From a virus: a DNA stretch of 64,000 nucleotides. Shown here in pieces: positions 14,559 to 17,279 of the stretch. The translations under genes and the position numbers were made by a program. The notes under the pieces are model-generated. The model was given only the letters and a program-made list of their open reading frames with translations, ran no database searches and was not told the origin of the DNA. Numbering within the stretch: the stretch's first letter is position 1; every line of letters starts with the position of its first letter. Where the stretch lies: positions 17,758-81,757 of the IMG/VR virus record IMGVR_UViG_3300020180_000016, one strand, 5' to 3'.

Positions 14559-14888
14559 GGCTGAGTGATGCCATGATACCTGAGCGACTCGCGGAAATGG
14601 ATGAGGTGGACAACTGTAAAGCCCGAGGTGACTGGATTACGGAAATCGCCATCCTCGAGCTTGTGGCAGAAGTGAAGCGGCTGCAAGATCTGATTAAGAA
14701 ATTTCAGGATCGACGAGTCGAAATCTAAATGTACCTTTTCACCGTCGAGTACCTAGTCGCTCAAGAGCGCCGGATGTCGGAAGTTGAGGTGACCGACACC
14801 AACGACGAGAAAGAAGCTCGATTGGTGGTGTTGAGGCATTACATCTCGCGAAAGATTCGAGTCGTTGCTATTCGTCGAGGAGGGTTTG

Positions 14889-16496
14889 ATGACGGGGCCT
14901 AGGAAAGCTACCAGGGTCGATCTTGTCAAAGAAGAAGGTCGGGTCAGGAAAGCCTACCAGAAGATGAGTGCGACCTCTTTCGAGGTATTTTATCGTGGTT
15001 TGACAATCGAGTCTGCCACAGGTCCGCGAGTCTTTGAAACCTGCTCTGCCGATTTCCAGAAAGAGTTCTTTGAGGACGTGGGGCCATCTTTACTCGCCGT
15101 TCAGTTAGGGATTCTACCTCCACGAAGACGGTTCTGGCTCGAGCGGACGAAGAAGTCCTCTAAGGATGCTGACTTAGCCATTATTATGATGTGGCTGATA
15201 GCATTTCCACAGAGGCCGCTCTATCTTCAGGTCGGTGCTGCCAATCGTGTGCAGGCGGCTATCGTCAAAGACCGAATGACCCATCTACTTCACTGGAATC
15301 CTTGGTTAACTGAACACGTCGAAATTGTTCAGTGGGAGGTCCGTAGTAAGAAGAAAAATCAAGCCGGATCCCATATGGCGCTTTTGCACATCATGAGCTC
15401 GGACATTTCTGGTGCTCATGGTGGTATCCCTGATGTTCTGATCGTCAACGAATTAAGCCACGTAGATAAATGGGAGTTTGTTGAGAATTTGATGGACAAT
15501 GCGGACGGCGTGGCTCAGGGAATCGTCATCATAGCCACCAATGCCGGGTTTGTCGGGACGAAGGCTGAGGTGTGGCGCCTGAATGCAATGAAATCACCGC
15601 AGTGGTGCTTTCATATGCTGGCTCGACCAGCTCCGTGGCACAGCAAAGAAACAGTCCTTGAGGCTGAGCAGAGAAATACATCCAGATCACGGTTCAGACG
15701 TCTGTGGCACGGCGAGTGGCAGACCGATAAAGGTGATGCTCTTAATCAGACTTTGATCGAGCGAGCTTTCACCCTCTCAGGGCCAGCCGGTAAGGCTGAT
15801 CCGACCTGGGATTATATCATGGGCTTGGATCTCGGCATTACCCATGACCATTGTGGGTTGGTGTGCATTGGCGTTAATCAGACACTCCGCAAAATCAGAT
15901 TAGCCTATATGGAAGGTTTTGCCCCAAACGGGGGCGAGGTGTTCCTTCCAGATGTGGAAAAGGCTTGTGACCGGATTGCTAAGATCTTTCGGCCGTTATG
16001 TCTGATCTATGATCCGCACCAAGCTATTCTTATGGCTCAGCAACTCCGAGGGAAAGGAATCCCGACCAGGCAGATGGTATTCAGTAGTCCAGGTAATCTG
16101 GGACGAATGGCGTCTAGTCTCGTACAATGTTTTGAGCACAACCTGATCGAGCTCTACGATGAAGATGATCGATTAAAGAGGGACTTGAATAAGTTCAGCA
16201 TCGTCGAAAAGCAATATGGTCTCAAGCTCGAGGCTACTCGAGATGAATACGGACATGCTGACGTCGGCACAGCCTTAGTGATAACTCTTCCGGCTGCTAT
16301 TGATCTCCTGGAAGGCTTATGGAATCCAGAGTTTGATGGCGATTTGATTGCTGTCGAGACTGAGGACTTGACCAAGGAAGAGATCGCAGAGCTACCCGAC
16401 CATTTCCGTGATTTGTTCGACATGGAAGATGGTGTGAAGAAAGAACGGCAGATCGAACAAGGTTGGGACGACAGCCCGTTTAAGGATTTGACATAA
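14889..16496 (+). CDS. Terminase large subunit
   Basis: GGAGG RBS; degenerate Walker A (RTKKSSKD), Walker B LIVNE, motif III ATN, RNase H-fold MGLDLG / YDP / HAD. Confidence 0.8.
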   Translation: MTGPRKATRVDLVKEEGRVRKAYQKMSATSFEVFYRGLTIESATGPRVFETCSADFQKEFFEDVGPSLLAVQLGILPPRRRFWLERTKKSSKDADLAIIMMWLIAFPQRPLYLQVGAANRVQAAIVKDRMTHLLHWNPWLTEHVEIVQWEVRSKKKNQAGSHMALLHIMSSDISGAHGGIPDVLIVNELSHVDKWEFVENLMDNADGVAQGIVIIATNAGFVGTKAEVWRLNAMKSPQWCFHMLARPAPWHSKETVLEAEQRNTSRSRFRRLWHGEWQTDKGDALNQTLIERAFTLSGPAGKADPTWDYIMGLDLGITHDHCGLVCIGVNQTLRKIRLAYMEGFAPNGGEVFLPDVEKACDRIAKIFRPLCLIYDPHQAILMAQQLRGKGIPTRQMVFSSPGNLGRMASSLVQCFEHNLIELYDEDDRLKRDLNKFSIVEKQYGLKLEATRDEYGHADVGTALVITLPAAIDLLEGLWNPEFDGDLIAVETEDLTKEEIAELPDHFRDLFDMEDGVKKERQIEQGWDDSPFKDLT

Positions 16497-16532
16497 TGAG
16501 GGCTACCACCGGGGAATCGAGCACCTCTAAAT

Positions 16533-16725
16533 TTGAGCACTCGGATGTGCTGATGGCGACCATCGAGCACTTGTGTGGTCAGTCCGTTGATGCCGAAAGG
16601 CGTTGAGCACGAAGTAATTCCGATCAGAAGCTACGCGGTCGGGAGACATTCGTCCGTTGATGCCGAAAGGCGTTGAGCACGAAGTAATTCCGATCAGAAG
16701 CTACGCGGTCGGGAGACATTCGTCC
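16533..16725 (+). CRISPR. Cas-less mini-array of type I-B/Myxan-like repeats (two 36-nt repeats, duplicated 34-nt spacer, partial terminal repeats)
   Basis: Repeats at 16575-16610 (GTGGTCAGTCCGTTGATGCCGAAAGGCGTTGAGCAC) and 16645-16680 share 29 identical 3' nt with a GCC-GAAA-GGC hairpin and TTGAGCAC handle; spacers 16611-16644 and 16681-16714 are identical; an extra TTGAGCAC ends at 16540, in the same 70-bp register. Confidence 0.8.
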
Positions 16726-16817
16726 TAGGCATTAAACTGAAGCTCTAACTCAAATCAATTTTAGGTGTTGCTAATCTCCCAACAAGGCCGCTACCATACA
16801 CCCACCGTTCTAGGTGG

Positions 16818-17279
16818 GTGCGTTCATTTAAACATAGCGGTTCCCCCTCTCCACCGCGTAGACCTGTGAGGGAGACTTCGTTGTTCGATGGGATCGAGGC
16901 CGTGCATCGGATCAGGCTCAACTATGACCTGGTTGGAGCTCTTGTATCTTTGATGTTCTTGGATATCGTTTCGGGTGTTCTTCTTGCGGTGTTGATGAAG
17001 AAGGTGAGCTCGCCAGTCTGTCGAAAGGGTATGTCGGTCAAGGCCGGTATCTTTCTTCTCATTTGTGTGGCGGCTATTATCGAGCCTTATGCAAATGGAT
17101 TGCCAGCCGTTCAAGTCTGTGCCATCTTCTATATCGGCTCTGAGTCGATATCCATTCTAGAGAAGTTGCAAAGAATTGGGGTTCCCATTCCTAAAGTCTT
17201 TGTCGAATCTCTCGTGGAAATGAAGGACAGAATGAACGTATTCACTAAGGGGAAGAAAGATGAAACTGCAGACGAGTAG
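16818..17279 (+). CDS. Phage holin (Phage_holin_4_1-like)
   Basis: Hydrophobic helices, D..SG, K, ESISILE.L..IGVPIP motif; true start probably internal. Confidence 0.8.
   Translation: MRSFKHSGSPSPPRRPVRETSLFDGIEAVHRIRLNYDLVGALVSLMFLDIVSGVLLAVLMKKVSSPVCRKGMSVKAGIFLLICVAAIIEPYANGLPAVQVCAIFYIGSESISILEKLQRIGVPIPKVFVESLVEMKDRMNVFTKGKKDETADE

Follow-up and report, generated by a model that had tools for sequence, protein, structure and literature searches.

How does a phage that encodes no Cas protein come to carry, between its large terminase gene (terL) and its holin gene, a short run of CRISPR-type repeats with one and the same intervening sequence twice, and what could such an element do? The locus lies in a window of 64,000 nt (the whole stretch of DNA analysed here, to which all coordinates refer) belonging to an 81.7-kb IMG/VR virus record that is 87% complete, and the initial annotation had described it as a cas-less CRISPR mini-array. 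Its account of the setting was correct: the PHROG matches of the two neighbours (phrog_9 and phrog_199) identify terL and holin, which lie with the element on the + strand, that of the late genes, and the search of the entire 81.7-kb record for cas homologues was negative, with neither a Cas6/Cmx6 match nor any tblastn match better than E 0.03 to eight host Cas proteins. The features on which the argument rests, some of them defined by comparison with the sibling contigs L034 and L035, are as follows.

14865..16496, + strand: terL (large terminase), upstream neighbour (E 3.1e-16)
16468..16497, + strand: weak sigma-70-like promoter match overlapping the terL stop (9/12 consensus, TG extension)
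16533..16540, + strand: the word TTGAGCAC, equal to the repeat 3′ end; left edge of the 69-nt segment missing from L034
16541..16574, + strand: S0, 34 nt that arrived jointly with R1 (absent from L034, alignment A1)
16575..16610, + strand: R1, full 36-nt type I-MYXAN CRISPR repeat (solitary repeat unit), by host-repeat identity, DR33 match and hairpin
16611..16644, + strand: S1 copy 1, native phage intergenic DNA, identical in L034 and L035
16645..16680, + strand: R2, chimeric repeat (first 7 nt, GACATTC, native flank; last 29 nt a copy of the R1 hairpin and handle)
16681..16714, + strand: S1 copy 2, an exact second copy
16582..16721, + strand: two 70-nt duplication units (100% identity; absent from L035; supported by unitig depth in run X1)
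16799..16820, + strand: terminator-like hairpin closing the intergenic unit (8-bp stem, 6 GC pairs, T-rich tail)
16818..17279, + strand: holin gene, downstream neighbour (E 3.5e-13)

The element is built on a perfect direct tandem repeat, positions 16582–16651 being 100% identical to 16652–16721 over 70 nt, after which GTCC stands once more at 16722–16725. Each unit consists of the 29-nt 3′ part of a CRISPR repeat, which runs from GTCC through the hairpin GATGCC-GAAA-GGCGTT to GAGCAC, followed by the 34 nt of S1 and by GACATTC; the GTCC words that bound the duplication lie one within the repeat and the other 70 nt downstream. The 22-nt word formed by hairpin and handle occurs exactly twice in the window compared to zero times in 100 shuffles, and the S1 34-mer likewise occurs exactly twice (16611–16644 and 16681–16714) and never in shuffles. 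Both the 70-bp duplication bounded by GTCC and the twofold 34-nt spacer of the initial annotation are thus as described there, whereas its two 36-nt repeats need qualification: R1 is full, while R2 is chimeric and identical to R1 at only 31/36 positions, with 29 nt shared exactly and the first 7 nt differing (GTGGTCA in R1, GACATTC in R2) because the duplication boundary falls inside the repeat. The truncated third repeat that had been proposed must be given up, since GACATTCGTCC consists of the last bases of the duplicated unit and the GTCC microhomology and is, with 8–12/36 identical positions, no closer to host repeats than chance.

Upstream of R1, the word TTGAGCAC keeps the exact 70-nt register of the element (starts at 16533, 16603 and 16673), and the 36 nt that end in it at 16533–16540 resemble host repeats only at chance level (12–15/36 identical). 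A hairpin, GAUGCC-GAAA-GGCGUU, with a single-stranded GAGCAC end is predicted in both R1 and R2; S0 has a predicted hairpin of its own, followed by GAGCAC (−12.8 kcal/mol, z −2.4), and may have been brought along from a host array as a spacer. Local alignment of the flanks against shuffles gave no significant sign of decayed repeats (p 0.07–0.9). We also observed that 5 of the 18 GAGCAC copies of the window fall within 160 nt (16519–16680), one of them (16519–16524) being present in the repeat-less sibling as well, and that ATCGAGCAC stands in native upstream DNA (16516–16524) and again within S0 (16562–16570). These words may represent microhomology that guided the capture of the repeat, or extra handle mimics.

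Short perfect repeats are prone to mis-assembly and the sibling contig L035 has a single copy, so that the duplication might not exist in the phage at all, a concern that the initial annotation had itself raised. In the independent Logan unitigs of run X1 (a microbial mat), the junction that only the duplication creates (16626–16681) was present at a depth of 48.9, compared to 41.5–44.8 for the flanks, and the 70-nt unit reached 96.2 (about twofold). The frequency of the duplicated allele in this run is close to full, and we regard the probability of an assembly artefact as negligible.

The repeat itself could be assigned to a family and, through it, to candidate hosts. Against the Rfam model CRISPR-DR33, R1 gave a full-length match (16574–16610, 30.5 bits, E 6e-5) and R2 a match to model positions 14–37 only (23.7 bits); neither reaches the gathering score of 39, because the 5′ half of the repeat is variable. 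R1 is identical at 34/36 positions to the repeat of L027 and at 33/36 to the commonest Pirellulales variant, and R2 at 28–32/36 to host repeats, a lower figure explained by its first 7 nt, which do not derive from a repeat. A 27-nt repeat core matches exactly the arrays in 14 loci of metagenome-assembled genomes (MAGs) of Pirellulales (Pirellula, Pirellulaceae, Anatilimnocola, Thermoguttaceae and other Pirellulales/Planctomycetia), and hairpin and handle are still 100% identical to those of the host. The host repeats are 36 nt long and nearly all host array periods are 70–75 nt. As typed by NCBIfam, the arrays adjoin genes for Cmx1/Cas8a1, Cas7/DevR, Cas5 (DevS/Cmx5), a Cas4-Cas1 fusion (MYXAN), Cmx8 and Cas3, with Cas6/Cmx6 on the same contig as the L023 array. 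The search of host arrays that the initial annotation had proposed therefore succeeded, and its attribution of the repeat to Myxan systems is upheld: an identical core in arrays beside I-MYXAN cas genes shows the subtype assignment to be right.

Our best guess is that the host is probably a Pirellula-like planctomycete (Pirellulales). None of the 239 spacers from the host arrays matches the phage, so it is repeat identity that makes this link. In run X2, also from a microbial mat, repeat-core 31-mers (16585–16612) were found in several unitigs at a depth of 18–135, the phage being at about 7, which suggests that arrays with this core are present in that mat, perhaps those belonging to the host. 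Single I-MYXAN repeats outside arrays also occur in Pirellulales genomes (L022, L027, L028, L029 and L031). That of L022 resembles a leader followed by one repeat, the sequence upstream of it being similar to that of the L026 array, and those in L027 and L031 are not beside cas genes, their neighbours being a pectate-lyase-like gene and BlaI/BlaR-like genes; ARAGORN found no tRNA where a tRNA fragment was sought beside the L027 repeat.

The hairpin-and-handle family recurs in 17 other IMG/VR viral contigs (L003–L019), as solitary copies in at least five (L005–L008 and L018), as two-repeat units (L003/L011, L013, L016 and L017), as small clusters (L014/L015) and as full arrays of 39–54 repeats (L009 and L012). 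In the true 39-repeat array of L009, one pair of neighbouring post-repeat 34-mers is identical, so even regular arrays of the family can contain identical neighbouring spacers. For the other viral mini-arrays, the identity measure used for duplicated neighbouring ‘spacers’ failed to separate them from true arrays.

The phage belongs to a lineage that is very thinly sampled, as is evident from its TerL, which has 345 homologues at E<=1e-30 among 5.8 billion proteins, the nearest 99% identical (P0001) and the next 57%. A locus search with TerL words returned no close relatives, the downstream-flank pattern had 0 matches in IMG/VR, megablast found no match among GenBank phages, and no phage ORF had a tblastn match in L003–L033 that would indicate a prophage copy. 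A metagenome scan with the S1 pattern returned only two contigs, L034 and L035, both ∼99% identical to the phage, and these proved decisive for the history of the locus. In L035 the locus contains a single repeat and is not duplicated. The repeat is absent from L034, whose S1 is intact and 100% identical, with everything downstream unchanged (alignment A1); this contig reads ...AAATTTGGGCATG, then directly S1, and has TTTGGGCATG at the position of 16533–16540. As S1 is present in the repeat-less L034, it is the phage's own intergenic DNA and not an acquired spacer.

Compared with L034, the alleles that carry the repeat contain an additional 69 nt, made up of a repeat end (AGCAC, completing TTGAGCAC at 16533–16540), S0 and R1, a layout equal to one period of a host array. 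Microhomology marks the junctions of both events, TTG(A/G)GCA that of the insert and GTCC that of the duplication, and the siblings carry 0, 1 and 2 modules. None of 28 more distant relatives (TerL 38–54% identical) has the repeat within 3 kb of terL, so that the repeat is most simply a recent gain. The repeat-less state of L034 may, less simply, have arisen by deletion instead of being ancestral; a plain deletion between the two TTGAGCAC words predicts a junction that differs from L034 at three positions. Taken together, the alleles lead us to conclude with high confidence that a solitary I-MYXAN repeat was captured and later duplicated with its flank, and that the ‘spacer’ is native, a history read from sequence comparison.

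Two freshwater runs extend this picture. Run X4 showed the repeat-less joint alone (from 16539 to 16681 with an intervening TG), while both this joint and a contiguous repeat-bearing piece (16506–16640) were present in run X3, in which the flanking SNPs (16471, 16473, 16779 and 16809–10) are all of the L034 type. This suggests that the 69-nt insert sits on two backgrounds and moves by recombination, a point for which the contig depths are too crude to be pressed.

The native origin of S1 bears directly on the purpose that the initial annotation had given to the element, in which the spacer would serve, as an acquired guide of doubled dose, to target a host gene or a rival element. In favour of this reading, the repeat type and the candidate hosts were confirmed, and two-repeat units of the family do exist in other viral contigs. 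However, the spacer is native flanking DNA that is also present in the repeat-less L034, the second repeat is chimeric, and the matches proposed as a check in IMG/VR and host genomes did not materialize. In IMG/VR, S1 had 0 matches as an exact 26-mer and 0 with a pattern tolerant at every 6th base; with up to 3 mismatches, it had 0 matches in five host MAGs and 401 sampled Pirellulales genomes; in the phage's own record only its two copies were found, and the metagenome scan gave no protospacer besides the siblings. S0 fared likewise, with 0 matches in IMG/VR by exact and every-6th-base-tolerant patterns, 0 in 61 genus-level genomes, and none in the phage's own genome or the fetched host loci. 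A comparison of a 58-spacer host array with GenBank phages, from which a PAM might have been inferred, gave no match. The acquired-spacer reading is contradicted by L034 and L035, and we consider it very improbable; what is left of the doubled guide dose is the 70-nt duplication, which is real, and since S1 is native and no target was found, the event is more aptly described as the duplication of a solitary repeat with its flank.

As a further possibility, S1 or S0 could pair partially with a host cas or toxin promoter and silence it in the manner of Cracr/crlRNA regulators. The TTGAGCAC-S0-R1 and R1-S1-R2 arrangements are degenerate repeat-spacer-repeat layouts that resemble viral crlRNA genes (10.1101/2024.10.29.618823). 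In a comparison of the PAM-proximal ends with host array and cas loci totalling 112 kb, S1 had 0 matches over its first 9 nt and S0 had 1, compared to 0.86 expected by chance; over the first 9–11 nt neither S0 nor S1 matched more often than chance. Such chance-level matching lends no support to a guide against cas promoters, and this regulator has, in our judgement, an even slimmer claim than the acquired spacer.

Rather than a weapon with a captured spacer, the element is more likely an RNA mimic of the host's CRISPR RNA. The reading that we favour, tentatively and with a probability of roughly 0.45, is that the phage took a solitary repeat unit from a host array, that this unit was subsequently duplicated, and that it acts as a mimic of host crRNA, akin to the RNA anti-CRISPRs (Racrs) described in other phages. 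On this reading, the terL–holin intergenic region received a solitary I-MYXAN repeat from a Pirellulales host array, the captured piece arriving as one unit of repeat end, 34 nt and repeat, which in this strain a 70-nt tandem duplication between GTCC words then expanded. Transcription would accompany or directly follow that of terL and extend to the hairpin at 16799–16820; host Cas6 (Cmx6) would bind and cut the two identical hairpin/handle modules, and the products would occupy host Cas6 and Cascade as crRNA mimics, as a Racr-type RNA anti-CRISPR does. The duplication would double the number of mimic modules. As its by-product, if transcribed and cut, a 70-nt RNA of exact crRNA dimensions (8-nt handle, 34-nt body and 28-nt 3′ part) would arise, while the single-repeat allele would yield only a 5′-processed RNA.

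Several lines of evidence are consistent with such a crRNA mimic: the identity of R1 to arrays flanked by I-MYXAN cas genes, the Rfam match with hairpin and handle intact, the intergenic site on the late-gene strand of a record without cas genes, and the promoter-like and terminator-like sites that bracket the element. Siblings with 0, 1 and 2 modules and 28 distant relatives with no repeat near terL mark the repeat as a recent accessory insert beside a native S1, the same family is found in solitary and two-repeat form in other IMG/VR contigs, and the GAGCAC handle words are clustered (5/18 within 160 nt). In light of earlier work, we note that published viral solitary repeat units are intergenic and matched to the host subtype, and that some are proven inhibitors (PMC10651486; PMC11656645). 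Other observations point away from it: the site behind terL suggests late expression, which would suit an anti-CRISPR badly; none of the neighbours was identified as acr-like; the host is deduced from repeat identity, with 0/239 spacers matching the phage; SRUFinder rules would file the allele of the window as a mini-array; the product after duplication would be a normal-looking crRNA and not an aberrant one; and polymorphism among near-identical phages fits a weak effect or none.

The signals that would govern expression are themselves ambiguous. One sigma-70-like site was found compared to 0.5 expected by chance, so the promoter match is a hint only, and the promoter-like and terminator-like matches are at chance frequency. 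The terminator-like hairpin is predicted to be stable (−16.5 kcal/mol, z −4.5) and differs between siblings in its loop only, by a TC/CT swap at 16809–16810 in L034 and run X3 and a 2-nt deletion in run X4, the stem being unchanged. Judged from the sequence, the holin gene probably begins near 16881, within the annotated ORF. As a separate observation, the 3′ half of S1 (16631–16645 and 16701–16715) is complementary to 16847–16861 at 13/15 positions plus one G-U pair; this stretch lies just upstream of the holin ribosome-binding site, beyond the terminator-like hairpin, and is present in all alleles. The pairing may mean nothing, the number of inverted repeats in the region being near chance.

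The duplication could also have given the element a different use. With a repeat placed 5′ of native DNA, S1 would become a guide against siblings that lack the repeat; the duplication would add the 3′ Cas6 site so that a complete crRNA is made, and host Cascade–Cas3 would attack co-infecting relatives of the L034 type, in which S1 has no repeat before it and the 5′ flank is CATG. Carriers would escape, each of their S1 copies being preceded by the repeat end (CAC), and the outcome would be superinfection exclusion or a homing-like spread of the insert through recombinational repair. The R1-S1-R2 unit is indeed canonical in size (its 70-nt period lies within the 70–75 nt of most host arrays), the 100% conservation of S1 in the repeat-less allele means that a candidate target exists in nature, the presence of both alleles in run X3 with L034-type flanking SNPs only suggests that the insert moves by recombination, and virus-borne mini-arrays are known to target related viruses, often near the array (PMC6858448). 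Nevertheless, the alleles coexist in run X3 and the protospacer is unmutated, as would not be expected if interference, at least that of the single-repeat allele, were strong, and we rate this self-made guide as possible but rather doubtful. Its fullest form is a mini-array born without spacer acquisition, a captured repeat and a 70-nt duplication sufficing to yield a crRNA against insert-less siblings while the insert removes the PAM in carriers; as a chain of predictions from sequence, it seems to us improbable enough to be put forward only as a conjecture. If true, this birth without acquisition would amount to a protein-free exclusion or homing element, and would explain why viral mini-array spacers frequently match array-adjacent regions in related viruses.

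Finally, neither event need have had a function: a fragment of a host array may have been pasted in by illegitimate recombination at TTG(A/G)GCA and enlarged later by a replication slip at GTCC. This would account for the microhomology at the junctions of both events, for the circulation of all three states in ∼99%-identical phages and for the lack of any target for S0 or S1. On the other hand, hairpin and handle are still 100% identical to those of the host, a random slip would rarely hit a period of 70 that falls in the host range of 70–75, run X1 contains the duplicated allele at close to full frequency even though perfect tandem duplications are unstable, and the clustering of GAGCAC is left unexplained. 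A neutral scar is thus an unlikely account of the locus, though one to be kept in mind beside the crRNA mimic that we prefer.

Phage solitary repeats and mini-arrays are already known; how they arise or interconvert is not. The three natural states found here in near-identical phages (no repeat, one captured repeat, and the repeat duplicated with its flank) provide a direct snapshot of a route. They also show that a ‘repeat-spacer-repeat’ unit of a phage need not hold an acquired spacer, which calls for caution in predicting hosts or targets from spacers, and they suggest an origin, open to testing, for those mini-array spacers whose matches lie in neighbouring regions of related viruses. An uncultured 82-kb phage is linked to Pirellulales hosts by repeat identity, and the little-studied I-MYXAN subtype joins the systems that phages appear to mimic.

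Among systems described before, crlRNA (Cracr) genes (10.1101/2024.10.29.618823) share with the locus a degenerate repeat, a short guide and a repeat on a phage with presumed loading of host Cas proteins, but the known examples target V-A, I-B, I-C, I-E and I-F loci in Pseudomonadota, Bacillota and Actinomycetota, and S1 and S0 of our phage are without a PAM-proximal match above chance in host cas loci. Cas-less mini-arrays (Medvedeva et al., 2019, PMC6858448; Faure et al., 2019, as cited there) have the same repeat-spacer-repeat layout and host-like repeats. Virus-borne mini-arrays target related viruses, often close to the array, the origin of this proximity being unexplained (PMC6858448; reviewed in PMC11656645), and here too the only spacer matches are in close relatives of the carrier, beside the array position. 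Unlike in those arrays, the phage ‘spacer’ is its own adjacent DNA, repeated by tandem duplication and not acquired, with no foreign origin or protospacer elsewhere found for S1; in addition, its second repeat is a chimera, its two ‘spacers’ do not differ from each other, and a leader like that of the host is lacking. In comparison with the Pirellulales I-MYXAN arrays (Rfam CRISPR-DR33/DR23), the phage has one full repeat, no adaptation or interference genes and no leader, while it shares with them the 27-nt core, 34/36 positions of R1, the hairpin and the GAGCAC end.

Viral solitary repeat units (SRUs) are intergenic, often lie behind a promoter and match the host CRISPR subtype in 83% of cases (Camara-Wilpert et al., 2023, PMC10651486); inhibition of CRISPR-Cas was demonstrated for RacrIF1 and RacrIC1, and many SRUs are reported to act as Racrs (PMC10651486; reviewed in PMC11656645). 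In the publications consulted, we found no I-MYXAN or planctomycete-phage example. Unlike those units, that of our phage came with 34 extra nt (S0), its activity is putative only, and it is duplicated with its flank, so that it is not ‘solitary’ under the SRUFinder rule of no other full or partial repeat within 100 bp (PMC10651486): R2 lies 70 nt downstream in the allele of the window, while L035 is without R2 but has the repeat-like stretch at S0. The likeness to them consists in R1 being a full-length, host-type repeat with hairpin and handle intact, in an intergenic region of a cas-less phage record, with a promoter-like site upstream and of the same subtype as the I-MYXAN cas genes of the Pirellulales MAGs that carry this repeat, the candidate hosts to which the repeat itself points.
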